Part shown: in pieces, positions 3,001 to 61,028 of the stretch
Layout: each line of letters starts with the position of its first letter
Numbering within the stretch: position 1 is the stretch's first letter
The notes under the pieces: model-generated
The model's input: only the letters and a program-made list of their open reading frames with translations
Databases searched by the model: none
What the model was told of the DNA's origin: nothing
NCBI GenBank assembly: GCA_016212635.1
Contig: JACRFR010000018.1
Location: 4,080 to 68,079 of the forward strand
Reading direction: 5' to 3'
Origin: Candidatus Liptonbacteria bacterium
GTDB taxonomy: Bacteria > Patescibacteriota > Minisyncoccia > UBA6257 > 2-01-FULL-56-20
DNA: 64,000 nt
Program-made: the position numbers and the translations under genes

Positions 3001-4481
3001 CCGTACTGCGACAACTGACCCCGGAAGATTACCGGCGAGGCGAAAAGATCGGGGAAACATTGAAAGCGGTTCTGGACCAAGATTATGCCAGCTGCATAAT
3101 CTGCAAGGAATCTTGGCGCTGGGACGCGGAGGAGCTCAGTAATCCCCAGCGGGAGCCGCGCATTTCTTGTTCCTGTATGCACGAGGTGTCGAAATGGAGC
3201 CCGATTATCCAAGCGATCGAAAACGGCTTAGCGGGCGAAACCGTGGAGGTGGACGGGCGCACCGGCTCGGTCCTGCGGCGAACCACAGTGGACGGGAAGA
3301 CAGCCGTGGAAACCGCCGTGTATTTTAAGTACGGACACTGGAACTTGGCAGTGATCGTTAACCGCAGCGCGTTGGCCCACCCGGGAGTCCCGGAAACGCA
3401 AGACGTCTGGCACCAGCCGACCTCCGCGGAGATAGAGCTGGCCCATACCGAACGAGAAAAGGATGCTGTTTTGAGCAGGCTCCAGAGTGAATTGTCGAAC
3501 TACGAGTACGATCTGGAATCCGCTAACCGTTCTGCGGAAGAAGGATCAGTCCACAAAATTCAGTTTCGAAGAGGCAAGAACCCGAAAACCAACAAAGAGC
3601 AGTGGGAGGCCGATGTGAAAACGGCGGATGGTATAAGCTTGAAACTCATTTTGGACAGCAAGGATAAGACCGTCCCCAAGGACGGAGTAAATTATTTCTG
3701 TCGCGAATATCGCCGCCTTGTAGATAATCCCAAATTCAAGTTAATAATAGTTACTCCGTATTTGGAAGAGGGACGTAACATACAGGCAGAAATTGAAGAG
3801 ACGACCACAAAATTCGACTCGCAGATTGCCATGGCTAGGGTGCGGGTGGAAGAGGAGAAGAAACAAGCAACAGAAGCGAAGGCGGAAGCCGCAACCCCAG
3901 ATCTTGCAACTAAACTTCAGTCGGCCTTGGGATCACGGGTCGAACCAAAAAGGAATGGTACCGTTACCGGTCCTCCGCCTCTCCCGCCGAAAGAATCTTT
4001 CGAAAAAGCAAAATCAGTACCCGAGCCGGAGGTTATGACACCGGAACTCCAGAGAGAATTTATGGAGATGCTGGATGTTGCTGATGTATTGGTTAAAAGA
4101 ATGGTGGCAGAGGGACTCAAATTAAATGACCAACAGCGCGATTTGTTGCGAAGCACGCGCAAAGGACTGGAAGATCTGGTCGGCCGACCTGCGAGCATTC
4201 GTGGCCACATACGGACGGTTCTCGCGGCTATTGAATCGCAATACAAAAAGAAAGGCGTGGAAGCGGGATGGACAAAGAGAGTTTTGGAACTCTGGAATGC
4301 CGTGAATCAGGTAATTGCAGATAATCCCGACGCGCAAGAATATGTCCGTGAGGGTGTTGTAACCCAGGGGGCTCTCGCAGAAGAAGTGCGCAAGAAAATT
4401 CTTGCATCAACCCCGCTCATCCAGAGCGGAAGGGAAATAGATGTAAGCAATCTGCTTTTGGAGCAGATGCAGGAGTTATAA
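1..4481 (+). CDS. 5'-truncated giant protein. The N-terminal part matches the C-terminal region of a DEAH/HrpA-type RNA helicase (HA2 + OB-fold region), followed by a ~1000-aa coiled-coil/charged extension with a Cys cluster.
   Basis: The frame is open from the window edge. Motifs TNVVLQVAAID, LDAEEKITEAGEMLVQFPLDPERAKVLL (HA2) and WCERNFINQKRMREAERIMHEIL are typical of DEAH helicases downstream of the helicase core. The long C-terminal region includes CIICKESWRWD...SCSCMHE. Confidence 0.6.
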   Translation, partial: LPGKDDIRDVMRSIQAKAEQLKCEGNVEVLSCHGESTPEEQDRVQTPLKPGTLRFVCGTEVLRSSVTVQNTIGIIDSLQIKRLISDAKGVGHLDKIAVSKAEADQGKGRAGRTRPGFYMPVSFGSEYERLNPYPTPAILQQPITNVVLQVAAIDRSARDFAFIDKPPADKLETALTRLKRIGALDAEEKITEAGEMLVQFPLDPERAKVLLVAEKLGVLSEAVIAAGVLEAENVFFSPNREQKTCMVEETVMRKILSHVEKEERYGSEYWKKLYEPRDPATVDIAILPKWAKKKGEYWEVDISDYDFPIEDGVRGISNVVRKQWAGKDKSDFATIVRAYRAFKGEERRLRDAEPPREPGQQRESPTTWRRNMLQAWCERNFINQKRMREAERIMHEILDELDNSPLRTENRIAYNRDFNAESLTKALAAGLTDNVARKSGRGFTGPIVERGQDFQIGRESVCPDGSELVIVSGVRKIPTRRQSFFYLADLAAPIKKEWLKEVMPQLCTSRREADAAYSPDADAVLETEASFYADLDLGREKVPAPYTAENAQRFARWLAGYNAARDTKNEKLKAVLLANDMQQQRATNLNLRVGEAKLKQYSNEEVFAFYSEKLAGAWKQSEVENSDDLRLPPLEDAEVEKILALYPDKISILGSDAEVTYTQQSKRSETGEYANVMVARVNLGDLSEGNKWMQLPEEGVKLPSGFVAEIQVSIKRDGSYWSENFSNTDIVALKEKITGYLNRSLWEEWKERPEITAPNPEDDDAVLPAITTASYGTSVVDGTPLMAYGTVVFNSNRYYSTDPSFKTEWFSVRLEAEESHAKAGTELDSLKKERRDQRELKSAQEAAQQSKDRLNKLYDQYYYSEIDSEMRSKLYNRRYESLPYQASELKQWKAEIDATIAEVESAVVEANRKGEEENQLLLNSARPIVMPGETTNENTVYGMPCNEEGPCDADVATEWRLYSYQDRRLRPHKGYRSKSYGTTFAELIQDYLRDDPNLDAVLRQLTPEDYRRGEKIGETLKAVLDQDYASCIICKESWRWDAEELSNPQREPRISCSCMHEVSKWSPIIQAIENGLAGETVEVDGRTGSVLRRTTVDGKTAVETAVYFKYGHWNLAVIVNRSALAHPGVPETQDVWHQPTSAEIELAHTEREKDAVLSRLQSELSNYEYDLESANRSAEEGSVHKIQFRRGKNPKTNKEQWEADVKTADGISLKLILDSKDKTVPKDGVNYFCREYRRLVDNPKFKLIIVTPYLEEGRNIQAEIEETTTKFDSQIAMARVRVEEEKKQATEAKAEAATPDLATKLQSALGSRVEPKRNGTVTGPPPLPPKESFEKAKSVPEPEVMTPELQREFMEMLDVADVLVKRMVAEGLKLNDQQRDLLRSTRKGLEDLVGRPASIRGHIRTVLAAIESQYKKKGVEAGWTKRVLELWNAVNQVIADNPDAQEYVREGVVTQGALAEEVRKKILASTPLIQSGREIDVSNLLLEQMQEL

Positions 4482-4630
4482 TTTGTTTTATTTATTGGGC
4501 GTCTTGCCTTCTCCGGCTTTTAGTCGCCTTGTGGCTGTTCTCGGTTATCAACTACCCCGCCTGGACTCTCAAGAGGGTTGGCGTCATCCCTTGTGGTATG
4601 CCAAACCAAACACAAGCGCCAGTTGGGGCT

Positions 4631-9180: not shown

Positions 9181-9212
9181 ATGATCATTGATTATTAATC
9201 ATTGATTATTAA
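9181..9212. promoter_or_regulatory. Tandem palindromic motif (TGATTA-N-TAATCA x2) directly upstream of tRNA-Arg. The same motif recurs at 46088-46118.
   Basis: ATCATTGATTATTAATCATTGATTATTAA contains two overlapping 13-bp palindromes. A 20-nt core TATTAATCATTGATTATTAA is shared with the 46-kb locus. Confidence 0.45.
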
Positions 9213-14893: not shown

Positions 14894-14926
14894 TCCACAA
14901 TCCGAGGCCCGACCTCGAAAATGTTG
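14894..14926. repeat. Family-1 palindromic repeat copy (GAGGGCGGGCCTCC...GAGGCCCGACCTC).
   Basis: Hairpin related to the GAGGTCGGGCC...GGCCCGACCTC family, sitting in the ruvA/rpsT divergent intergenic region. Confidence 0.5.
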
Positions 14927-15013
14927 CAAATTCTCGCTGGGCCGGTATACTGTTCTCGTCGTTTACCTCGGCCCCCTATATTCTATATCCTAACTTCTAA
15001 ATTCTCTATCGCC

Positions 15014-15348: not shown

Positions 15349-15384
15349 GGAGGTCGGGCCTTGGGAATTCTTAAGGCCCGACCT
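15349..15384. repeat. Family-1 palindromic repeat (GAGGTCGGGCCTT-loop-AAGGCCCGACCTC) between the convergent rpsT and holA genes.
   Basis: Perfect 13-14-bp stems. The flanking GGATGCAATTC extends the palindrome. Confidence 0.7.
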
Positions 15385-15399
15385 CGGATGCAATTCCGT

Positions 15400-16380: not shown

Positions 16381-16508
16381 GGTGATTAAAGCATACCGCC
16401 TCCCAGCAGGGCGGGCAACTGCGTTCGGGCCTTGTTTTACGGGCCTAGAATCACCCGGCGCAATTTGATGCCATTTCCAATTAGCCCGTACCCGGAAGAA
16501 TTGCAGCC

Positions 16509-16545
16509 GAGGTCGGGCCTTAAGGATTCCTCAAGGCCCGACCTC
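16509..16545. repeat. Family-1 palindromic repeat.
   Basis: GAGGTCGGGCCTTAAGGATTCCTCAAGGCCCGACCTC, preceded by the conserved CCCGGAAGAATTGCAGCC extension. Confidence 0.7.
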
Positions 16546-19765: not shown

Positions 19766-19897
19766 GGCGCTGTTCGAAAACCCCAGGTTTGTCATTCCGG
19801 CGAAAGCCGGAATCCAGGTTTTCTTAGTCACTGGATCCCGGGTCAAGCCCGGGATGACGCTCGGCAAGCGGGGGAATCAATGTTTTCGAACAGCGCC
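19766..19897. mobile_element. MITE-like element copy A: 132 bp with 16-bp perfect terminal inverted repeats GGCGCTGTTCGAAAAC and a 7-bp flanking duplication (CAGACCT). It is inserted in the 3' end of polA.
   Basis: It is identical (1 mismatch) to 60587-60718. The interior has two hairpin arms, GTCATTCCGGCGAAAGCCGGAATCCAG and CTGGATCCCGGGTCAAGCCCGGGATGAC. The original polA C-terminus (..VKVCTGKDWGHLELHG*) can be reconstructed across the insertion. Confidence 0.8.
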
Positions 19898-32860: not shown

Positions 32861-33406
32861 ATGTCTGGTCATTCTCATTGGGCTGGCATTAAACACAAAA
32901 AGGGCGTTACCGATCAAAAACGCGGGGTTTTGTTTTCCAAGCTTTTAGCCGCGGTTACTATCGCCGCCAAGGGCGAGCCCGACCCGGAGTTCAACCCTCG
33001 GCTTCGGACCGCGGTAGAAACGGCGCGCGAAGCCCAGGTGCCCAACGACAATATCACGCGAGCCATTAGGCGCGCCGCTGACACCTCTGCTGTTTTAGAA
33101 GAATTAATGTTCGAGGCCTACGGTCCCGGCGGGACGGCGATCTTGATCGAGGCGATCACCGACAGCCGCAACCGGACCGTTGCGGAGGTGAAGCATATTC
33201 TCTCTGAACGGGGAGGGAAGTGGGCGGATTCAGGCAGCGTCCAGTGGGCCTTTGAGCGTGTTTCTGGTTCGGATGGTTTGAAGTGGCAGGCAAAATTTCC
33301 CATGGAGTTATCCGCCGCCGATATGGAACAGTTAAAAAATCTCCTGGGGGCCATAGATGAGCATAACGATGTACAGGAGGTTTATACTAACGCTAAATTA
33401 GAATAA
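32861..33406 (+). CDS. yebC: YebC/PmpR-family transcriptional regulator (short form).
   Basis: MSGHSHWAGIKHKKGVTDQKRGVLFSKLL. 181 aa. Confidence 0.85.
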   Translation: MSGHSHWAGIKHKKGVTDQKRGVLFSKLLAAVTIAAKGEPDPEFNPRLRTAVETAREAQVPNDNITRAIRRAADTSAVLEELMFEAYGPGGTAILIEAITDSRNRTVAEVKHILSERGGKWADSGSVQWAFERVSGSDGLKWQAKFPMELSAADMEQLKNLLGAIDEHNDVQEVYTNAKLE

Positions 33407-33489
33407 AGAATGGAGAATTAAGAATTAGGGGGGGTTATGCTCTCGTTATTTTTGCTTAATTCTATATTCTAACTTCTAAATTCTACCCC

Positions 33490-41162: not shown

Positions 41163-41583
41163 GGACTGCAAAATAGAAGTCGACGCCGAGCACCGGCACG
41201 GCTCGATCTTTATTTACAGCCACGAGAACCTGATCCAAGAGAACCTGCCCGACTTAGTGGAAAGCATCAACCATTTGGTGCAAATGGCGGCCAAACAACA
41301 AAATGCCGAGACCATCTTCTTCGATCTAAATAATTACCGCCGCGAGCGCGAGCGGCTGATCGCCGAACTGGCTCGAACCGCGGCCCGCAAGGTGCTCGCG
41401 ACCCAACAAGAACTAACCTTGCCCAGCATGAACTCTTACGAGCGGCGGCTGGTCCACGTGGAGCTCGCCACCCATCCGGGAGTAGTTACCGAGAGCAACG
41501 GAGTGGGACGAGAACGCTGCGTGGTGATCAAACCCCTCACGGATGAACCGAAAGGGTCCCTAGTCCAAAGTCAGACCGTATAA
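41155..41583 (+). CDS. jag: Jag/KhpB-like R3H RNA-binding protein.
   Basis: NSYERRLVHVELATHPGVVTESNGVGRERCVVIKP (R3H). Confidence 0.8.
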   Translation, partial: GFEDCKIEVDAEHRHGSIFIYSHENLIQENLPDLVESINHLVQMAAKQQNAETIFFDLNNYRRERERLIAELARTAARKVLATQQELTLPSMNSYERRLVHVELATHPGVVTESNGVGRERCVVIKPLTDEPKGSLVQSQTV

Positions 41584-42786
41584 CCGCCGGTCGTATCGGT
41601 TGATGAAGAACAGCCGGTTTTGGTACACCCGAAGTTCATCTGCGTCCAGGCTCAACCCCTCTAAATTAAGCAAGCTGGACACGTCGCCGGTGGTTAAGTT
41701 GATCGAGAGAAAATCATCCACCGTGTAAAGACGGCGCTTGAAGTAATCATCCGGCAGCTCCGCCGCCGCGAAAGCCCGGGCGTCCCGAGGCACGGCGCAG
41801 ATCAAACCAGCCCCCTCCGTAGAAGTGGCCTGACCCGAGCTCGTCGAATGAGCCTGCCCCAACTCTTCGCTCTTCGCGCTTCGCTCTTCGCTTATCAAGG
41901 TGCATTTATTGGGCAGGGTGAGAAAGTTCAGATCGTGCAGGACGGTGCCGCCTCGCCCCAAAAGGGACAAGGTGCCGCCCCGGCGGTTCTTGTTGGCCGC
42001 AAAAGCGACCCCATAACCCGCCGCCCCGTTCCAATTAATAACTAATCCCACCCGACCCGCCAGGGCGGGCTGGGATGTTTGTTTGGCCAAATCAACCCAC
42101 CACGCCGCCCCTTCGGTTTCCGCAGAACTCCGAGCGACCAAAAGGATCTTCTCCGGACTGGAAGCGATAATATCCACATCGCTAACGTTCACGCCTAAAA
42201 GCGGCCGGGGTGGAGCTTGGGGGCGGGCTGGGTCCAGTTCGGCTAAAACGTTAGTCTTATCACCCCGAGCCAAAAACAAAACAACTCGGCTGTCGGCGGA
42301 CCAAGCGGCGTCGGTTACCGCGACCGGCAGGCCTTGCCAAGTACTGGAGGCGGTCGAAAAAAGAGAAGCGCCCGACTTACCCTCGGCTAGGACGAAACGG
42401 CCATTGGGCGAAAAACGGGCACGGGTGAGGTTGGGCAAGGTGCTGGCGCTGGCCGTGCCGGTGCGCCCTCCCGCCACCCGAACCACTTGCCCGTCGGGAC
42501 GGATCAACCAAACGACACTTTGTTTGTCCACGAAATAATCCAACACCGGATCGGGGGCGACCACGCCGAACTTCTGACTCATTGCAGTGACGCCGGGACT
42601 GGAACTGGTGGCGCCCGGAACAACCACCGTGCCCGGTCGAGAAACTATGCCGGGAGATATGACGCCGCCGACGCCGCTCGGATTGGGGTGGCTGGGGGCT
42701 GGAACGGATCGAAAAACTTGCCACAAACCATAGCCCGCCAGTGCGCCGACAACCAACACTATTAAAACCAGGATCAATTTACGCAT
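41560..42786 (-). CDS. Signal-anchored hypothetical protein (408 aa) carrying an SEER-repeat insertion.
   Basis: N-terminal transmembrane segment, Ser/Gly-rich region, and SEERSAKSEEL encoded by a 14-mer x2 tandem repeat. Confidence 0.5.
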   Translation of the reverse strand: MRKLILVLIVLVVGALAGYGLWQVFRSVPAPSHPNPSGVGGVISPGIVSRPGTVVVPGATSSSPGVTAMSQKFGVVAPDPVLDYFVDKQSVVWLIRPDGQVVRVAGGRTGTASASTLPNLTRARFSPNGRFVLAEGKSGASLFSTASSTWQGLPVAVTDAAWSADSRVVLFLARGDKTNVLAELDPARPQAPPRPLLGVNVSDVDIIASSPEKILLVARSSAETEGAAWWVDLAKQTSQPALAGRVGLVINWNGAAGYGVAFAANKNRRGGTLSLLGRGGTVLHDLNFLTLPNKCTLISEERSAKSEELGQAHSTSSGQATSTEGAGLICAVPRDARAFAAAELPDDYFKRRLYTVDDFLSINLTTGDVSSLLNLEGLSLDADELRVYQNRLFFINRYDRRLYGLTLD

Positions 42787-44311: not shown

Positions 44312-46084
44312 TTACTTGCCCTCCCCGGCCTCTTCTAAGAGTTGTTTGGGGTCAGTGGTAATAATCTTACCTTCAAAGTAGGAAGGAATGATCTGGATTG
44401 CCACATGCCGCTGGCCGGCGATGAACAAACCAGTGCCCACCTCCGCGGTCAACAACAGATCTTTTTCCGCTTGGGTTAGATTAAAGGCCTTACCTACCAC
44501 ATCAATGGTGGCCGGGGCTTGTTTCAGGAGTAATTGAACTGAAGAGTTGGTGATGACCGGCCGGCCATATGGGGAGCGCAGGAAATCCTCCACGTCCTGG
44601 GTGATGGTAGTGGTACCCAAGTAGTACTTGCGGCAGCGTTTGACCAGGCCGAACAAGAAGGCGGCACTGGTTTCATCTTTCATCATCCACCAAGCCTCAT
44701 CCACGATCAAGATCCGCCGCTTAAGATGGGCGCGGATCAGATTCCAAATAAAGTTTAAAATAAGATACATGGCGATCGGGCGCAGTCCGTCTTCCAGGTC
44801 CCGGATCGAAAAGACAATCAATCGATTCTTAAGATCAATGTTGCTGGCTTGATTCAGGAAGCCGGAGAAGCTGCCCTTGGTGAACTTATAAAGCCGCTCG
44901 GCCATGCCCCGGCCGCCCTCTAGGTTGCGCAACACCGTTTCCAGATCCTCCAATAGGGGCGGCTGGGCCTCCGAGAAGTCTTCCCCGATCACGATCTCGC
45001 GCGAGGCGTATGTTTCCGTGATGGCTCGGTCCAGAATGGCATCTTCCTCGGTAGAAACTTCGCCCAAGAGAAGCTTGATCAAACCGGCAATATTTACAAT
45101 ATGCGAACGCAAAACATCCGAGGCAGTCTCTCCGTCGGGGATAATAGGCAGATCGAAAGGGTTAATGTGCTCTTCGGAGGATAGGGAAATGTTGAAGAAG
45201 CTCCCGCCGAACGCCTCGGCTAAGCGTTGGTACTCGTTCTCTGGGTCGATGACAATAACCTCCGTGCCCAACATTAAAGAACGGATAATTTCCAACTTAG
45301 TGGCGTAGGATTTGCCGCTGCCCGCCTTAGCGAAGACCACCTGATTCGCGTTTTCCATGGAGAACCGGTCGAAGATGACCAAACTGTTATTGTGACGATT
45401 GATGCCGTACATCACCCCATCTTCGGAGGTTATATCTTCGGAAACAAAAGGAAAAAAGGACGACACCGGACCCGAATTCATGGGGGTCATGACCAGGAGA
45501 TGATCCTGCCGCAAAGGCAGAACCGACTGATAGCCTTGCAGTTGCTGGAACAGAGCGGGCTTGGCGAAGACCAATTTAGCTTCCAAGATCGAGGTCAGCC
45601 GACTTTCGATCCGAGTCAGTGCGTCCAAGTTATCCGCGTAAATAGTCAGGTACACCGCCACACTAAACAATCTTTCCTGGCCCTGCATCAGCCCGTCGCG
45701 CAGATTCTCAATGTCTTGCATCGCGGTCTCCAGCATGGGATCGCGGACCAACCCTTTTTCTTCCCGATCCGCGATTTGGGACTGTACTTGGGTGACTTTC
45801 TTGCGCAAATTTTTCAAGGCGTTACCGGTGTCCAAGGGCTCGGTGTAGATCGCGATATCCATCAATTCCGGCAGGTTGATAATCGGCTCGAACCAACCCG
45901 TGGACAGGAAGCGCGGGTAGGAAAAGAAGAAGAAGGACTTGGCGAGCTTATCCCCGATCTTGAGGTAGTTAGATTGCACCTCCAGGCCCGGTGGAGCGAT
46001 AACCTTTTTAACTTGTTGGAAATTGTCGGGCATGTTAGGAGTGTGAGACGCGGCGCCGTCTAAGCTAGAATTCGATGGTGCCAT
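44312..46084 (-). CDS. VirB4/TrbE/TraC-family type IV secretion ATPase (C-terminal AAA_10-like domain).
   Basis: VFAKAGSGKSY Walker A and ILIVDEAWWMMKD (the DEAW Walker B diagnostic of VirB4), then the conserved RK...TQ...D region. Confidence 0.8.
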   Translation of the reverse strand: MAPSNSSLDGAASHTPNMPDNFQQVKKVIAPPGLEVQSNYLKIGDKLAKSFFFFSYPRFLSTGWFEPIINLPELMDIAIYTEPLDTGNALKNLRKKVTQVQSQIADREEKGLVRDPMLETAMQDIENLRDGLMQGQERLFSVAVYLTIYADNLDALTRIESRLTSILEAKLVFAKPALFQQLQGYQSVLPLRQDHLLVMTPMNSGPVSSFFPFVSEDITSEDGVMYGINRHNNSLVIFDRFSMENANQVVFAKAGSGKSYATKLEIIRSLMLGTEVIVIDPENEYQRLAEAFGGSFFNISLSSEEHINPFDLPIIPDGETASDVLRSHIVNIAGLIKLLLGEVSTEEDAILDRAITETYASREIVIGEDFSEAQPPLLEDLETVLRNLEGGRGMAERLYKFTKGSFSGFLNQASNIDLKNRLIVFSIRDLEDGLRPIAMYLILNFIWNLIRAHLKRRILIVDEAWWMMKDETSAAFLFGLVKRCRKYYLGTTTITQDVEDFLRSPYGRPVITNSSVQLLLKQAPATIDVVGKAFNLTQAEKDLLLTAEVGTGLFIAGQRHVAIQIIPSYFEGKIITTDPKQLLEEAGEGK

Positions 46085-46087
46085 GGC

Positions 46088-46118
46088 GAGTTATTAATCA
46101 TTGATTATTAATCATTGA
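46088..46118. promoter_or_regulatory. Second copy of the TGATTA-N-TAATCA tandem palindrome, in the 34-nt gap directly upstream of the VirB4-like start.
   Basis: TTATTAATCATTGATTATTAATCATTGAT shares the 20-nt core with 9181-9212. Confidence 0.45.
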
Positions 46119-46802
46119 TCATTTCTGACCGGCCGCCTCCAAAGTTTCCACGCCCGGAACTCGTACCCCTTCCTTCTCGATAGTTTCGGGGTTATAGAAG
46201 TTATAAAACAATTCCACCAATTGTTCGTTGCCTAGCAGTTTAACTTCCAGCCCGACCGCCCGCAGGCCTTCCATTACTTGTTCTACTCGCTGTCCCAGCT
46301 GGGTCAGGTTTTTTTGGAACTCGGCTTCGTCCGCCGCGCTAGTTTGGGCCGCGGCCGCGCTCGTATCTTTGGACTTGAGAAAAGGTAAAAATTTACCCGC
46401 ACTCTCGCGGCTGGGCAGGGTTACGGTGTCGTAGGGAACAACCACCAAAAAAAGCTTCCGCATAATCGGGTTGTCGTGGACAAAACCCCGGATGAACGAC
46501 TGGTACTCCAGCATTTGGTTCTGCAGTAAACTGGATGGCTCGTCCACCCGGCGCTTCTCTAGTTTGGTCAGATACTTCTCGATATTGATCTTGCGCGAAT
46601 GGATCACGGTTTGAACGGTAAAATCCAATCCATTTAGAAATTCCTGGTAGCTCTGGGTAATTACGTTCTGTTCCACCTCGGATTTCAGGGCGAAATTCAT
46701 TCCCCCCACCAGCAAAATTTGCCGCAGGCCGCCGGACAAGATAATGGTGTTATCCCGGATCTCCTCGATCATTACTAGGTTTTGAGTGTTGGCTTCGGCC
46801 AT
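46119..46802 (-). CDS. Hypothetical protein (227 aa), possibly the detached N-terminal domain of the VirB4-like ATPase.
   Basis: It sits immediately upstream of, and co-directional with, the 590-aa VirB4-like gene. The combined length is about 817 aa, close to a full-length VirB4. Confidence 0.4.
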   Translation of the reverse strand: MAEANTQNLVMIEEIRDNTIILSGGLRQILLVGGMNFALKSEVEQNVITQSYQEFLNGLDFTVQTVIHSRKINIEKYLTKLEKRRVDEPSSLLQNQMLEYQSFIRGFVHDNPIMRKLFLVVVPYDTVTLPSRESAGKFLPFLKSKDTSAAAAQTSAADEAEFQKNLTQLGQRVEQVMEGLRAVGLEVKLLGNEQLVELFYNFYNPETIEKEGVRVPGVETLEAAGQK

Positions 46803-47516: not shown

Positions 47517-47602
47517 AAAAACCTATATGTCCTATCTGACCTATCGGGCCCGTGAGTCTTGTATCGGTTCCAATTAACGTACACCCGGAAGAGTTGCATC
47601 CG

Positions 47603-47637
47603 AGGTCGGGCCTTAGGGAGCCCCAAGGCCCGACCTC
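47603..47637. repeat. Family-1 palindromic repeat.
   Basis: GAGGTCGGGCCTTAGGGAGCCCCAAGGCCCGACCTC with the conserved upstream CCCGGAAGAGTTGCATCC. Confidence 0.7.
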
Positions 47638-47757
47638 AATGAATCCGCCAAGTCATCCGACCTGGCGTCCGGTCGAATAACCGGACGGGGCGTACCCTAT
47701 TCGCATCGATTCGCGAGTGGTGATTAATTGGAGACAGTACAACATAACCCGCGCGAC

Positions 47758-54445: not shown

Positions 54446-54462
54446 TTCCGGGTTCTCATATC

Positions 54463-54499
54463 GAGGTCGGGCCTTAAGATTTCCCCAAGGCCCGACCTC
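54463..54499. repeat. Family-1 palindromic repeat.
   Basis: GAGGTCGGGCCTTAAGATTTCCCCAAGGCCCGACCTC + AGATGCAATTC. Confidence 0.7.
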
Positions 54500-54518
54500 A
54501 GATGCAATTCTTAAAAAA

Positions 54519-55319
54519 TTACTCAACCTCCTCAAGCACATGCGTCAATCGCTCCAAGTCATCAAGAGACAAGTTGCCCGGCCGAACTTGAGGGTCGAAA
54601 CCCAACTCTTGGAGCCAGAGCTTTGGTTCCAAGCGCCCCCCCGCTAATCCCGCAGCGGTTAGGTTATTAAGTAAGGTTTTACGCGGCTGTCGAAACAACA
54701 AGTTCACCAATTGAAAATACTGATCCCGGCGAGTAACACTAGGTGGTTGCCGGCGGCGCAGGACTACCAACACACCGTCCACCTGGGGCGGCGGCGAGAA
54801 TTCTTGGCGGGGTATCTTTAAAACCAGTTCCGGTTCCCAGTCCAGCTGGACGCTGGCCGAGAGTTTGTTCATGCCGGGCGGCTTGGCCGCGAGGCGTTCG
54901 CCCACCTCCTGCTGCATCAAAAAAACACAAGCATCCGGGAGGCGGGGTAAGTTGCTGATCAAGCGCAAGAGATAACCGGTCAGGTAGTAGGGCAGGTTGC
55001 CGACCAGGAGATAAGAACGGAGAGGGAGTAGGGGGTAGGGAGTAGAGAGTAGAGTACGGATGTCGCCGGGAATGATTTCCACCCGCGGATCGTTCTTGTA
55101 CTTCTCTTGAAGCGCCTCGGCCAGTGCCGCATCCTTCTCGACCGCAATTATTCTCCTCGCTCCTCGCTCCTCGCTCCTCGCGAGTATCCCAGTCAACTCT
55201 CCATGCCCGGGGCCGATCTCTACGATCGCTTCTCCGGGCAGGGATGTGATCACTTCGGCGATGCGTTCCAGGATCGCCGAGTTCTTTAGAAAATGTTGGC
55301 CTAATTTTTGCCGCGGCAT
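54519..55319 (-). CDS. rsmA: 16S rRNA dimethyladenosine transferase RsmA/KsgA, with an SEER-repeat insertion.
   Basis: MPRQKLGQHFLKNSAILERI...VEIGPGHGELT. CTCCTCG x4 (55149-55176) encodes ARSEERGARR. Confidence 0.9.
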   Translation of the reverse strand: MPRQKLGQHFLKNSAILERIAEVITSLPGEAIVEIGPGHGELTGILARSEERGARRIIAVEKDAALAEALQEKYKNDPRVEIIPGDIRTLLSTPYPLLPLRSYLLVGNLPYYLTGYLLRLISNLPRLPDACVFLMQQEVGERLAAKPPGMNKLSASVQLDWEPELVLKIPRQEFSPPPQVDGVLVVLRRRQPPSVTRRDQYFQLVNLLFRQPRKTLLNNLTAAGLAGGRLEPKLWLQELGFDPQVRPGNLSLDDLERLTHVLEEVE

Positions 55320-55438
55320 GTTTTGTTTCGTGTCATTCCCGCTCGCCTCGCTGAAGCCTCCGGCGAAGCGGGCGAAGGCGGGAATCTAGTGCCCCCTTGG
55401 CTATTATAAGTCAAAAGTTAATAGTCAATCGTCAACAA

Positions 55439-58366
55439 TCAATCGTCAATAGTTATGTAGTCCTCTTCCTCCGCGCGGGACTCAAAATTCAGCAGCTCGG
55501 GCGGCAGCTCGCCTAAAAACCGGGAGGGAATGTCGAAATAAGACAGGGTTAGAGAATGCCTGGCCCGGGTCATGCCGACATACAACAAACGGCGCTCCTC
55601 TTCCAGCTCCGCGTCACTGCCCAAAGACCAGACATGAGGCACTAGTTCTTCCTTGCAGCCCACGATAAAAACCCGGTCGAATTCCAAACCCTTGGCCGCA
55701 TGCAGGGTCATCAGTGCCACTGGCGCGACCCGATCTTCTTGCTTGTCGCTTGTCGCTTGTCGCTTGTCGCTATCTGCGTCCGTGTCCTGAACCAATGCTA
55801 CTTTTTCTAGGAAGTCGCTGATGGTCGGAAAGGATCGCGCAAAAGCGAGCAACTCCGCGATGTTCTCGCGGCGCTCCCGATGATCCGGGAAAGAATGTTC
55901 TAAATATGTCAGGTAGCGGGTGTGGCTCAAGAAATATCGGAACACTTGGCTGGGCGACTGGCTAGCCAACCCTTCTGAACCGGCTAGAAAGTTTTTGAAA
56001 CCCTGCTTGGTCAAAACCTTTTCCAATCGTTCAGTGCTCAATAGGTCTTTGGGGTTGGCAATAACTTTAAGCGCGGCCAGAATATCCTTAACCTCTCGGC
56101 GTTCATAAAACTTCAACCCTCCGAAGATCTGGTACGGTACATCCCGCTCCAAAAGCGCCTGTTCCAAAGCCCGCGACTGGGCATTGGTCCGGTAAAGTAT
56201 GGCCGTGGTTTGTCCGGTTCTCCTCGCTCTTCCCTCCTCGCTCTTCGCTATGTTTTCTGCCACCCATTTCGCCTCTTGGTCTTCATCTGTAAATTCCGCC
56301 AACCGGATCAATTCCCCTTGGGGATTTTCGGTCCACAAAGATTTGGCTTTCTGGCGGCGATTGTGCGCGATCAGGGCCGAGGCGGCCCGGATAATGTTGG
56401 CGGAGGAGCGGTAGCATTTTTCCAGGAGAACCACCTGCGCCTCCGGCCAGTCCTGTTCAAAATTGAGGAATATTTCGAAGTTAGATCCTCGCCAGCGGTA
56501 AATAGAATTGTGCACAACCAGCCGATTGGCCGTGTAATTATGAACCCCGGCCACTTCCAGGTCATAGACCCATCCGCGATACGATTCCCATTCCACCTTT
56601 TTTATCTCATCCTCGACCACGCGCCCGCCAATTTTTACCGCGACTTGCATGGAGGGACGAGCGTGAGCGGCCGGTTGCAGCAACATTCGCGGGCCGGCAG
56701 TTAATCGCGCCGTCCGGACCGTTTCTAGGCCGGGATCAAGGGGTTTTATCTTCCGCACCCAATTTTCCAAGACCGCACTGTCCATATTAGTCAGCTCCGT
56801 CCGCCAATCGGAATATTTGCCCCGCCTGGTAGTTAGGCCCAAGGCGGCCACTTTTTCCTTTAGCCGCTGATCGCGGGTATTGATGCTCAATCGGCTTAGG
56901 CCCCAAGGATGGAGTTTACTTTTGCGCTTGTCGTCGAACATGGTTAGGCGCAAGCGCAATCGGTGGCTAGCGAAACGAATTCCGCCCTGGGGCAGGTAGT
57001 GGGGCCAATTAAAATAAAGGTGGTGATCCGCCATCAGTTTTTTCACTCGCGCAACAGTGTCTATATTTTGGAACAATCGGTCAACTTGGTCTTGAGATAT
57101 AAGCATGGACCTGTTACCGGTGTCGAAAACCGTGGTGGGTATGCCGTACTGAAACGATAAATACGCCTCCCAATATTGGGCTTCCCCACGGCTAGCGCAT
57201 ACCCGCACGATCCACATCTTGTCTCCCCTTTCCTGGTTGCTCCTGACCCGTAGTCCTATTTGCGATACGCCTCCTTGGACCTTTCTTGCGCCTTTGGCCA
57301 AGCCGAGCCGGAAACCGCGATCGGAGCGGTACATAAGATATACATAATATATTTCTTCGCATAGTTTGAGGCGCAAGAAAATAATATGGTTGGGTGTCAG
57401 GCGTAGCGTTTGCCCGCGGGCGGTAGTGATTTTTACCAAAGAGCCGCGATAGAAAAACTTTTTAACTTTTTTCACTACACCCGAGCAAACGCCGCCGTTG
57501 CCGGAAGCTGACCAGATCCGGTTTCCCTGCCTTATCTCCCTTATCGGCCGCGGGCCGGCGGAGGTTAGAATTTCGGTGTCCGGCGGGACGCACTGATGAT
57601 CATCCCCCACGGCAGTTACCGAGCCAGTCGCCCCGGCCATAAGTCGCACCATCTCATACTGCATGTTATTCAGATCCTGATACTCATCGATCAACAAGTA
57701 GCGGGTTCTTTTTTGAACGCGCTGGCAGACCATTTTATCCGAGCTACATAGCTGGACAACTTGATAAACCAAGTCGTCCAAGTCAAAAGCGTTGTTTTCT
57801 TGCAGCGCCTGTTCGTAAGCCGCCCAAATTTGAGCTAACACTTGGTCCTTGGGATCTGCCGAGTCCGGGTCGGGCAGTATCGCGGTCCCTTCCTTGATCC
57901 GGCTCACGGCTTGGAGCAGGCCGGCGGGTGAAAAGCGCGTCGGGTTGATCTCCAGCCGCTTGAACAGTTTTTTCATGAGCTGCATCGCGTCGCCGTGATC
58001 GAAGATCGCGAAGTCGGCCGTTCGACCCAAGAGCCGCGCCTCGAATCGCAGCAGGCGAGCGCCGAACGCGTGAAAAGTTCCAATAAACGGAGTCCCCCGC
58101 TCTTCGCTGTTCGCTCTTCGCTCTTCGCTTCCCACTACGCGTTCGATCATCACCCGCGCGGCCTTATTGGTCAAAGTTAGCGCGCAGATCTGGTCTCCCG
58201 GAATGCCGCGCCGGAGCAAGTTCTGGAGCCGGCTCATTAAGGTGTGGGTTTTGCCCGTGCCCGCCCCCGCCACAATTAATAGAGGCCGATCCGAAGCCTC
58301 CACGGCTTGTTTCTGCTGGGGGTTTAGACCGGAAAAACGGCTGGGAGAATTTTCGGGGATGTCCAT
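55439..58366 (-). CDS. UvrD/PcrA/Rep-family SF1 helicase containing an intein in motif III and three heptamer-repeat insertions.
   Basis: AGAGTGKT (motif I), LIDEYQD (motif II), VGDDHQ|[intein]|SIYRWRGSNFE (motif III), then motifs IV-VI. Confidence 0.9.
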   Translation of the reverse strand: MDIPENSPSRFSGLNPQQKQAVEASDRPLLIVAGAGTGKTHTLMSRLQNLLRRGIPGDQICALTLTNKAARVMIERVVGSEERRANSEERGTPFIGTFHAFGARLLRFEARLLGRTADFAIFDHGDAMQLMKKLFKRLEINPTRFSPAGLLQAVSRIKEGTAILPDPDSADPKDQVLAQIWAAYEQALQENNAFDLDDLVYQVVQLCSSDKMVCQRVQKRTRYLLIDEYQDLNNMQYEMVRLMAGATGSVTAVGDDHQCVPPDTEILTSAGPRPIREIRQGNRIWSASGNGGVCSGVVKKVKKFFYRGSLVKITTARGQTLRLTPNHIIFLRLKLCEEIYYVYLMYRSDRGFRLGLAKGARKVQGGVSQIGLRVRSNQERGDKMWIVRVCASRGEAQYWEAYLSFQYGIPTTVFDTGNRSMLISQDQVDRLFQNIDTVARVKKLMADHHLYFNWPHYLPQGGIRFASHRLRLRLTMFDDKRKSKLHPWGLSRLSINTRDQRLKEKVAALGLTTRRGKYSDWRTELTNMDSAVLENWVRKIKPLDPGLETVRTARLTAGPRMLLQPAAHARPSMQVAVKIGGRVVEDEIKKVEWESYRGWVYDLEVAGVHNYTANRLVVHNSIYRWRGSNFEIFLNFEQDWPEAQVVLLEKCYRSSANIIRAASALIAHNRRQKAKSLWTENPQGELIRLAEFTDEDQEAKWVAENIAKSEEGRARRTGQTTAILYRTNAQSRALEQALLERDVPYQIFGGLKFYERREVKDILAALKVIANPKDLLSTERLEKVLTKQGFKNFLAGSEGLASQSPSQVFRYFLSHTRYLTYLEHSFPDHRERRENIAELLAFARSFPTISDFLEKVALVQDTDADSDKRQATSDKQEDRVAPVALMTLHAAKGLEFDRVFIVGCKEELVPHVWSLGSDAELEEERRLLYVGMTRARHSLTLSYFDIPSRFLGELPPELLNFESRAEEEDYITIDD
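56507..57592 (-). other. Intein, 362 codons (residues 259-620 of the helicase), inserted between Q and S of helicase motif III.
   Basis: It starts CVPPDTEIL (Cys1) and ends ...YDLEVAGVHNYTANRLVVHN, followed by Ser+1. Block B TPNHIIF is present. Boundary codons were verified on the nucleotide sequence: TGC at 57590-57592, AAT at 56507-56509, TCT at 56504-56506. Confidence 0.8.
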
Positions 58367-60575: not shown

Positions 60576-61028
60576 ATGACCTACAGGGCGCTGTTCGAAA
60601 ACCCCAGGTTTGTCATTCCGGCGAAAGCCGGAATCCAGGTTTTCTTAGTCACTGGATCCCGGGTCAAGCCCGGGATGACACTCGGCAAGCGGGGGAATCA
60701 ATGTTTTCGAACAGCGCCGACCTACAAAGTTATCGATCGGTTGCCGCCGCGCGGTGGTGCATTTGACCCCGATGTCGCAAAGGCCGTGGCGGCCGGCTAC
60801 GATTTGACAATTCACTACACGTTTCAGGAGGGAGAAGGCTGGTCTTGTTTCGTTGCGGTTCGGGACCGACATGATAATCCGCCGAACTATACCAAGATTT
60901 TAGCGGACCCTCGCTTCGTGAACGCCCTGGAAGTTGCAGGGTTGGCCAACTTTCGGTACACAGGCGGCGCGGAAAGCGACGAGGAATTGATCAAGGCGCT
61001 GAAAGAGATATTCCCGACCCTGTACTGA
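60576..61028 (+). CDS. Small hypothetical protein whose codons 4-50 are supplied by an in-frame MITE insertion. It is preceded by consensus TTGACA-16-TATAAT and an AGGAGG SD.
   Basis: MTY[RALFENPRFVIPAKAGIQVFLVTGSRVKPGMTLGKRGNQCFRTAPTY]KVIDRLPPRGG... The bracketed 47 aa are the element plus its 8-bp TSD. Confidence 0.5.
   Translation: MTYRALFENPRFVIPAKAGIQVFLVTGSRVKPGMTLGKRGNQCFRTAPTYKVIDRLPPRGGAFDPDVAKAVAAGYDLTIHYTFQEGEGWSCFVAVRDRHDNPPNYTKILADPRFVNALEVAGLANFRYTGGAESDEELIKALKEIFPTLY
60587..60718. mobile_element. MITE-like element copy B (132 bp, 16-bp TIRs) with an 8-bp target-site duplication GACCTACA at 60578-60585 and 60719-60726.
   Basis: Near-identical to 19766-19897. The TSD was verified on both flanks. 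Confidence 0.85.

Follow-up and report, generated by a model that had tools for sequence, protein, structure and literature searches.

Heptanucleotide repeats were described by Mrazek, Guo, and Shah in 2007 as the most abundant class of long simple sequence repeats (SSRs) in most prokaryotic genomes; polymerase slippage was proposed as their origin, and unit lengths that are multiples of three were named as those usually found in coding regions, as related in passages of two papers (PMC4679880, PMC4692102). Passages of the latter report long-unit repeats mainly from large, high-GC genomes, and Rehm et al. (2015) describe there the GGGNATC and GGGGA(C/T)T heptamers of Xanthomonas and Nostoc, for which four units are preferred, a preference ascribed to G-quadruplex (G4) formation (PMC4692102). 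MacGregor (2015) treats direct repeats of the unit TAACTGA, which are found in marine Beggiatoaceae and also in cyanobacteria and Bacteroidetes (PMC4679880). Here, we analyzed a stretch of 64,000 nucleotides (the window) from a metagenome-assembled genome (MAG) of Candidatus Liptonbacteria (Parcubacteria, Candidate Phyla Radiation [CPR]), a small genome with 53% GC, in which heptamer arrays of about 30 nt lie inside the genes of a PcrA/UvrD-like helicase, the 16S rRNA dimethyltransferase RsmA, and a conserved 408-aa protein. These arrays are specific to a period of 7 nt, are located in loops, recur in the orthologous loops of relatives, and have a T-poor sense strand, and the loops of this lineage show a lag-7 periodicity. 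The tracts are probably heptanucleotide SSRs that originated by slippage or template switching and were filtered by selection to permissive loops.

The arrays of the window resemble the long heptanucleotide SSRs of other prokaryotes in having head-to-tail 7-nt units above chance, in favoring period 7, and in being denser in noncoding DNA. They differ in that perfect tracts lie in frame within conserved housekeeping genes, in their recurrence at the same loops across the lineage together with the lag-7 signature of these loops, and in their host, a CPR bacterium with a small genome of 53% GC. With the GGGNATC and GGGGA(C/T)T heptamers of Xanthomonas and Nostoc they share a genome-specific unit family, about four units per array, and some copies placed over stop codons. 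However, those heptamers are G rich and form quadruplexes, whereas the AGCGAAG, AGCGACA, and AT-rich units of the window cannot form G4. Because units unable to form G4 share the preference for about four units, G4 formation is unlikely to be the cause in general. The TAACTGA repeats are intergenic, upstream of start codons, and when read forward they include stop codons, whereas the units of the window are different ones that are stop free and T poor on the sense strand. The cyanobacterial heptamers STRR1 to STRR3 are CCCCAGT, TTGGTCA, and CAACAGT. As in the STRR, TAACTGA, and GGGNATC systems, one unit family is preferred in this genome, the AGCGA core being common to five of the seven GC-rich tracts; the units of the window (AGCGAAG, AGCGAGG, AGCGACA, CTACTCC, ATTGACN, and AT-rich units) match none of TAACTGA, GGGNATC, and STRR1 to STRR3. 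In Nostoc punctiforme, small dispersed repeats (SDR) of 21 to 27 nt reportedly form hairpins and are associated with tandem heptamers, as Elhai et al. are said to have described in 2008. Palindromes within heptamer tracts of one relative, described below, are similar to these SDR, but the tracts of the window itself are not interrupted by such a palindrome. Phase-variable contingency loci of Haemophilus, Neisseria, and others likewise carry intragenic SSRs with a unit length that is not a multiple of three; however, the kind of host gene, the place of the tract within it, the shortness of the array, and its stability between relatives oppose switching here. A literature search found no published link of heptanucleotide repeats to CPR. 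Thus, heptamer repeats as such are known, and the in-frame occurrence within housekeeping genes, the recurrence in orthologous loops, and the lineage-specific lag-7 signature of the loops seem to be new.

Tracts were detected by Tandem Repeats Finder (TRF) and by a lag-7 scan. The helicase gene (55439-58366, minus strand, 975 aa, Pfam PF00580, PF13361, and PF14890) contains three of them. The loop 1 tract (58098-58129, minus strand) consists of 4.6 units of AGCGAAG in the sense strand, or CGCTCTT on the plus strand, and codes for SEERRANSEER at residues 80 to 90 (encoded peptide, GSEERRANSEERG). The loop 2 tract (56220-56249, minus strand) reads AGCGAAG AGCGAGG AGGGAAG AGCGAGG AG and codes for AKSEEGRARR at residues 707 to 716; TRF called 1.9 copies of a 14-mer at 56220-56246, which correspond to four 7-mers of two alternating types. 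The loop 3 tract (55741-55771, minus strand) has 4.4 units of AGCGACA (GCTTGTC on the plus strand) and codes for SDKRQATSDK at residues 866 to 876 (encoded peptide, DSDKRQATSDKQ), in the linker ahead of motif V (LMTLHAAKGLEF). In addition, a degenerate (ATTGACN)6.4 array (55408-55453, minus strand) covers the final helicase codons and the stop codon and extends into the spacer before rsmA; TRF gave its limits as 55409-55453. The rsmA gene (54519-55319, minus strand, 266 aa, PF00398) directly follows the helicase gene and carries two tracts: a perfect array of 4.1 GCGAGGA units in loop 1 (55153-55181, minus strand; CTCCTCG on the plus strand), which codes for ARSEERGARR at residues 47 to 56, and a degenerate array of five CTACTCC units in loop 2 (55019-55054, minus strand), which codes for LLSTPYPLLPLRS at residues 89 to 101 and was called by TRF at 55019-55052. 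The helicase and RsmA sequences both have 100% matches among NCBI MAG proteins, that of RsmA being from a Candidatus Liptonbacteria MAG. The sixth intragenic tract (41863-41892, minus strand), 4.3 units of AGCGAAG (CTCTTCG on the plus strand) with a length of exactly 30 nt, codes for SEERSAKSEE at residues 299 to 308 of the 408-aa protein (41560-42786, minus strand), a conserved CPR protein of unassigned function whose hydrophobic N-terminal stretch, judged by eye, looks like a membrane anchor.

All of the host open reading frames (ORFs) are intact and on the minus strand. The five tracts of the AGCGA type share their start phase, and each can be read as four units plus AG (30 nt). The tracts at 41863 and 58098 differ at 2 of 30 positions, and the coding tracts are too uniform for shared variants to be traced. 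When the sequences were read directly, neither terminal inverted repeats nor a hairpin was seen in the coding tracts, which are pure direct repeats with one purine-rich strand. A preliminary description of this DNA had already listed five of the six intragenic tracts and their peptides (SEERRANSEER type, AKSEEGRARR, ARSEERGARR, and SEERSAKSEE). TRF, the lag-7 scan, and shuffled sequences bear out that these are real heptamer repeats at the DNA level, and the peptides are encoded as it stated. It had overlooked the rsmA tract at 55019-55054, the array over the stop codon, and about eight intergenic arrays, and it had placed the loop 1 tract of the helicase at 58086-58128, about 12 nt too far left. 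The proposal that the frame is kept because each tract length is a multiple of 3 needs correction, as the periodic lengths are 29 to 32 nt and not uniformly multiples of 3, but by simple arithmetic a change of one or two units does shift the frame. The remark that all the tracts are on minus-strand genes is true but uninformative, because nearly every gene in that region is on the minus strand.

The window showed a clear preference for period 7. At a score of at least 13, five tracts were found at period 7 and seven at period 14, with zero or one at each of the other periods from 2 to 21, and 20 dinucleotide shuffles of the window gave no tract at this threshold. The lag-7 scores were bimodal, with a background of 7 to 9, tracts at 13 to 24, and a gap between them. 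Because of this bimodality, the tracts form a class of their own, with lengths of about 30 nt, and not the tail of a continuum. Under lenient scoring, 15 arrays were found at period 7 and 11 at period 14, the latter being mostly the period-7 arrays again, compared with at most three at the other periods. The arrays added by lenient scoring are AT rich and lie in intergenic spacers. About eight of these weaker arrays are in the approximately 11% of the window outside long ORFs, compared with six or seven arrays in the 89% inside, and the density of heptamer arrays is thus higher in noncoding than in coding DNA.

The period also explains the peptides. Because 7 is not a multiple of 3, the unit cycles through three reading frames; three units make 21 nt, which gives a peptide with a period of 7 residues. 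AGCGAAG read in three frames is S-E-E-R-R-A-K, and AGCGACA is S-D-K-R-Q-A-T. Each base of the unit serves as a second codon position in one frame, and a T-free unit consequently gives no hydrophobic residue and no stop codon. In 22 coding tracts of the window and of related genomes, the sense strand contained 40% A and 14% T, compared with 24% A and 21.5% T in the average coding sequence of the window. A exceeded T in 19 of the 22 (P = 9e-4), T was absent from 9 of the 22, and the encoded peptides are uniformly hydrophilic. Unrelated proteins thus share SEER-like peptides because T-free units such as AGCGAAG are read in three frames, and these peptides are a DNA-level by-product of a common unit family, as the preliminary description had supposed, and not a protein motif or a sign of homology. 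A heptad periodicity at the protein level was rejected as the cause, because a periodicity of residues cannot produce a 7-nt lag.

Next, we examined the location of the tracts in alignments of RsmA (35 sequences), the helicase (83 sequences, 82 of them orthologues), and the 408-aa protein (59 sequences). The closest other homologues of the helicase and RsmA have about 50% protein identity, and the comparison is therefore not one at the strain level; the protein clusters to which the tract-bearing relatives belong likewise contain one member each. All six intragenic tracts lie in hypervariable, indel-rich loops. The two RsmA tracts are the two most variable stretches of its alignment, and the loop 1 tract stands between the GPGHGELT SAM-binding motif and the strand IIAVEKD. 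In the helicase, the loop 1 tract is between motif Ia (TLTNKAA) and motif Ib (GTFH), the loop 2 tract is ahead of motif IV (ILYRTNAQS), and the loop 3 tract is ahead of motif V (LMT.H.AKGLEF). In the 408-aa protein, TLPSKC and CAVPRD are conserved and enclose a hypervariable linker that is rich in S/T/A, differs greatly in length, and contains the tract. AlphaFold2 models of RsmA and the helicase show low-confidence, nonregular segments at the tracts. The RsmA model has a mean pLDDT of 89.7, and the loops at residues 49 to 55, after the end of helix 41-48, and 93 to 102 have the lowest internal confidence, with the lowest internal pLDDT (70) in the latter. In the helicase model, pLDDT is below 50 at residues 82 to 86 and at spliced residues 499 to 515, and the loop 2 tract is in a loop (351 to 358) with a block pLDDT of 69. 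The tract loops of the helicase also align to linkers of the solved PcrA structure 1PJR, loop 1 to the QSLLGG-AAE linker. The surface-loop location that had been expected is thus confirmed by alignments, models, and a solved structure.

The lengths of the tract loops are close to those of the orthologues. Compared with the orthologue medians, the loops of the window have 41 versus 40.5, 49 versus 48, 55 versus 51, and 68 versus 63.5 residues. Since these lengths are near the medians in the alignments of all three proteins, the tracts are unlikely to be plain insertions, and a simple insertion relative to the orthologues was not supported. RsmA loop 1 without its ten tract codons would keep about 4 residues, whereas every orthologue has at least 9. 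The preliminary description had suggested checking whether orthologues lack these inserts. The peptides of the window are absent from the orthologues, but these often have their own heptamer-coded peptides at the same places and loops of similar length, so that no clear insert is seen. The same peptide coded by nonrepetitive DNA, which the preliminary description had named as a refuting result, was not found in any orthologue examined; similar peptides of two relatives (NSEARSAKRK in L121 and QRQATSDKRQ in L205) are themselves coded by heptamers.

DNA around the helicase orthologues was then taken from other Parcubacteria, from independent assemblies (NCBI, JGI, ENA, and Logan). Period-7 tracts with other units were found at the same loops of the helicase and RsmA. 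Helicase loop 1 carries GCGAAGC in L121 and (AGCGACA)4AG in L205; loop 2 carries AAATTAG in L204 and L124; and loop 3 carries GCAAAGC in L121, AAAGCTA in L122, GAGTCAG in L126, AGTCATC in L120, and a 51-nt degenerate array in L204. RsmA loop 1 carries AATCAAA in L121, AGCTAAT in L204, and GAATAAT in L203, and loop 2 carries CTCAAAG (30 nt) in L122, AACCTAC in L121, AGCTATA in L204, and ACTACTC in L124. A third RsmA loop has no tract in the window and carries GTATCAG in L126. The 30-nt block (AGCGACA)4AG of helicase loop 3 in the window is identical to that in loop 1 of the helicase of L205 (10209-10238), which is also a Liptonbacteria genome.

The loops retain a period-7 signature beyond the visible tracts. 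The lag-7 identity pooled over 36 helicase loops from 13 Parcubacteria genomes was 0.426, compared with 0.25 in the rest of the genes, and it was still 0.353 (n = 1255 comparisons) in 26 loops without a detectable tract. In contrast, the same three loops of 73 PcrA/UvrD genes of other bacteria, which were the distant genes among the matches listed in a metagenome scan for helicase relatives, had a lag-7 identity of 0.261 with the usual 3-6-9 codon periodicity. In about 594 kb of these control loci, four period-7 tracts were found, three of them in the few Parcubacteria. Because the signature is raised even where no tract is visible, unlike in the control, the loops of this lineage therefore appear to be built largely from heptamer arrays at various stages of decay.

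The turnover of the arrays can be followed in L204 and L124, which are 87% identical over 3.5 kb and differ by three large indels. One concerns the degenerate heptamer array of helicase loop 3, which spans 51 nt in L204 and is missing from L124. Another is a 21-nt palindrome, CCTGCCT GGCCGGT AGGCAGG (CCTGCCTGGCCGGTAGGCAGG), within the AAATTAG tract in loop 2 of L124 (approximately 2805-2825), and the third is a 43-nt intergenic palindrome. The loop 2 tract itself has 4.9 units in both genomes, variant unit included, across 13% nucleotide divergence; since the unit number is unchanged, four-unit tracts are not hypermutable on this time scale. In the rsmA gene of L124 (within 3632-4532), a palindrome of about 30 nt stands inside the ACTACTC tract of loop 2, and both palindromes within coding heptamer tracts keep the frame. 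In the L204 RsmA loop 2 array, the final unit AGC TAT AAG comprises the codons of the conserved S-Y-K, which fits seeding from native local sequence.

To place the units in a wider set, reference genomes were scanned for (CGARGAG)3, and the matches listed (118 loci, L001 to L118) were analyzed. At least 118 reference genomes contain this sequence, compared with about two expected by chance, and the hosts among these matches include Planctomycetota, Acidobacteriota, Gemmatimonadota, Calditrichia, Bacteroidota, Patescibacteria, and others. The seeded loci contained 187 tracts at period 7 and at most nine at any other period. The 118 (CGARGAG)n tracts were 21 to 104 nt long with a peak at 25 to 33 nt, and their start and end phases were skewed but not fixed, 48% of them beginning at (A)GCGA. 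Among 71 further period-7 tracts in these loci, 23 were within one mismatch of the seed family, compared with 2.7 expected. Within the window and the loci of six relatives, the helicase and rsmA genes make up 11.6% of the bases and carry 11 of the 15 period-7 tracts (P = 4e-8), in loci that were selected around the helicase; the other genes of these loci, conserved or not, are nearly free of tracts. The GC-skew profile of the window has no switch near 54 to 58 kb and hence does not suggest that an origin or terminus lies at this hot spot. Homing of the helicase intein (56507-57592, minus strand, 362 aa, at the conserved GDDHQ|C...VVHN|SIYRWRG site) was rejected as the cause of the clustering, because the intein-free L122, L203, L204, and L205 have tracts in the same genes.

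In the origin that we favor, a DNA-level process that forms repeats with a preference for a 7-nt period would act in spacers and within genes alike, and its generating step would be replication slippage or local template switching. Selection would purge intragenic tracts unless they fall in structurally unconstrained surface loops, and those that survive would leave the downstream frame intact and have a sense strand that is stop free and T poor across all three frames. The tracts would afterwards erode by point mutation and indels, and we infer that they have no function of their own. Several observations weigh against this origin. Stepwise slippage predicts many precursors of two or three units, and none were found above background in the window. 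Single-unit steps shift the frame, so that births require jumps of three units (21 nt) or a compensating deletion. The units of the tracts are at the 39th to 89th percentile of coding-sequence 7-mers and thus are not common ones; seed abundance therefore fails to explain the choice of unit and was rejected as its cause. In addition, five of the seven GC-rich tracts have the AGCGA core and start phase in common, (AGCGACA)4AG recurs at a different loop in the genome of L205, the loci seeded with (CGARGAG)3 have the above excess of the seed family, the unit variants of two intergenic arrays follow the same order, and the hot spot in the helicase and rsmA genes is unexplained. The shared variant order, the seed-family excess, and the family resemblance of the AGCGA tracts fit copying between loci better than independent births.

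Copying as the general mechanism, by which arrays of about 30 nt would spread as ready-made blocks instead of growing locally while selection keeps the in-frame copies in permissive loops, is nevertheless considered unlikely. Ectopic template switching, patching from tract to tract in the manner of gene conversion, or a miniature mobile element could provide the route; this reading generalizes the short insertion element that the preliminary description had offered as an alternative. Such spread would accord with the discrete length class and the lack of two- and three-unit intermediates, with the common phase and the 30-nt fit of the AGCGA-type tracts, with the identical block in L205, and with unit families that are genome specific and not drawn from the common 7-mers of the genome. 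The dispersed intergenic copies with the same variant order (14976 and 33459; 9184 and 46091), the small mobile-looking repeats of this genome (a 132-nt MITE-like element and REP-like hairpins), and the 21-nt palindrome inside an L124 tract also point in this direction. However, loops of median length make a plain 30-nt insertion unlikely, and an RsmA loop 1 reduced to about 4 residues would be shorter than that of any orthologue. The coding tracts also lack terminal inverted repeats and hairpins, some of them take in conserved flanking codons, and the (CGARGAG)n tracts listed from many phyla vary in phase and length; being phase skewed but not phase fixed, they lend weak support to a fixed 30-nt cassette, which was rejected. 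Likewise, we regard only as a tentative idea that the arrays of about 30 nt in Liptonbacteria and related Parcubacteria are a self-propagating sequence class, copied between loci and possibly between genomes, which together with inserting small palindromes would account for most of the variation in sequence and length among the surface loops of otherwise conserved proteins.

A selected function of the tracts, either as an on/off contingency switch by unit number or as charged linkers formed by SEERRAK-like peptides, is improbable. Phase variation classically rests on SSRs within coding regions (PMC4692102), the tracts are concentrated in two genes, and their peptides are uniformly hydrophilic. 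However, the hosts are housekeeping genes and not surface, restriction-modification, or virulence genes, and the tracts (residues 47-56, 80-90, 89-101, 299-308, 707-716, and 866-876) are not concentrated at the 5' ends. Arrays of four units are short and relatively stable, as the 4.9 units retained in L204 and L124 show, and nothing points to phase variation. The linker version is opposed by the unrelated units and peptides of the orthologous loops, with no conservation of the peptide, and AT-rich period-7 arrays are present in noncoding spacers as well. An assembly or sequencing error is very improbable: the source is a MAG and repeats can be misassembled, but tracts of about 30 nt are much shorter than a read, the long ORFs and the full-length homology on either side of the tracts are kept, and equivalent tracts are found in the independent assemblies of the relatives. 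A diversity-generating retroelement is also a poor fit, since the arrays are direct tandem units and not the product of A-specific mutagenesis between a template and a variable repeat; a 13-mer self-comparison of the window found no long template/variable repeat pair, the ORFs not being scanned for reverse transcriptase.

Outside genes, the same repeat phenomenon includes an inverted pair of AT-rich arrays, (AGAATNN)4 and (ATTCTNN)4, between two plus-strand genes (33400-33485), which folds as a long hairpin (-25.4 kcal/mol, z -3.0). Inverted pairs of heptamer arrays a few bases apart, some of them within long ORFs, were also seen in other loci, at L046 5018-5085 and 6044-6127 and in helicase loop 1 of L203 and L126, with units such as (AGGAGCG)n or (AGAAGTT)n and their reverse complements, and the "IRIRKF"-type inserts in some helicase loops are inverted pairs of (ACGAATN)n. 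Another AT-rich intergenic array of the window (14976-15005) has its unit variants in the same order as the right arm of the hairpin pair (33459-33485), which identifies it, as judged from sequence, as a dispersed copy of that arm. A second dispersed intergenic pair with a common variant order is at 9184 and 46091; at each site (9184-9212 and 46091-46123), the 14-mer ATCATTGATTATTA, which contains the palindrome TAATCAtTGATTA, is present twice in tandem. One site is upstream of tRNA-Arg(CCG) and the other is upstream of the gene starting at 46084, and the tandem may be a candidate operator or promoter element.

The window also contains two near-identical copies (93 plus 38 nt exact) of a 132-nt element (19766-19897 and 60587-60718) with 16-nt terminal inverted repeats (GGCGCTGTTCGAAAAC ... 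GTTTTCGAACAGCGCC), one of them at the junction of two minus-strand genes, which looks like a miniature inverted-repeat transposable element (MITE). A palindrome similar to repetitive extragenic palindromes (REP), GAGGTCGGGCCTT(N~9)AAGGCCCGACCTC, is found at about five intergenic sites (14905-14918, 15350-15393, 16507-16545, 47594-47638, and 54461-54500), typically just beyond the ends of genes; it may represent a miniature mobile element or a terminator hairpin common to these sites. The gene order around the helicase, M23 peptidase, helicase, rsmA, and a type IV secretion-like cluster, is conserved in the Parcubacteria loci compared. The intein in the helicase was matched by Pfam Intein_splicing/Hint on the database copy of the protein; a second Liptonbacteria helicase (P0220, L120) also has an intein, and the majority of relatives have none.

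Altogether, it seems that in at least one CPR lineage the hypervariable loops of enzymes that are otherwise conserved have been overwritten repeatedly by 7-nt arrays read in three frames, instead of evolving codon by codon. This explains odd low-complexity peptides common to unrelated proteins and cautions against calling them motifs or domains, and it affects the alignment and phylogeny of CPR marker proteins. It also bears on why the long SSRs of prokaryotes favor 7 nt and about four units, and the orthologous loops, with their independent births and decays, are a usable data set for how such arrays arise. If the arrays were indeed self-propagating, they would drive the evolution of protein loops from the DNA level, specifically in this lineage, in place of ordinary codon-wise drift.

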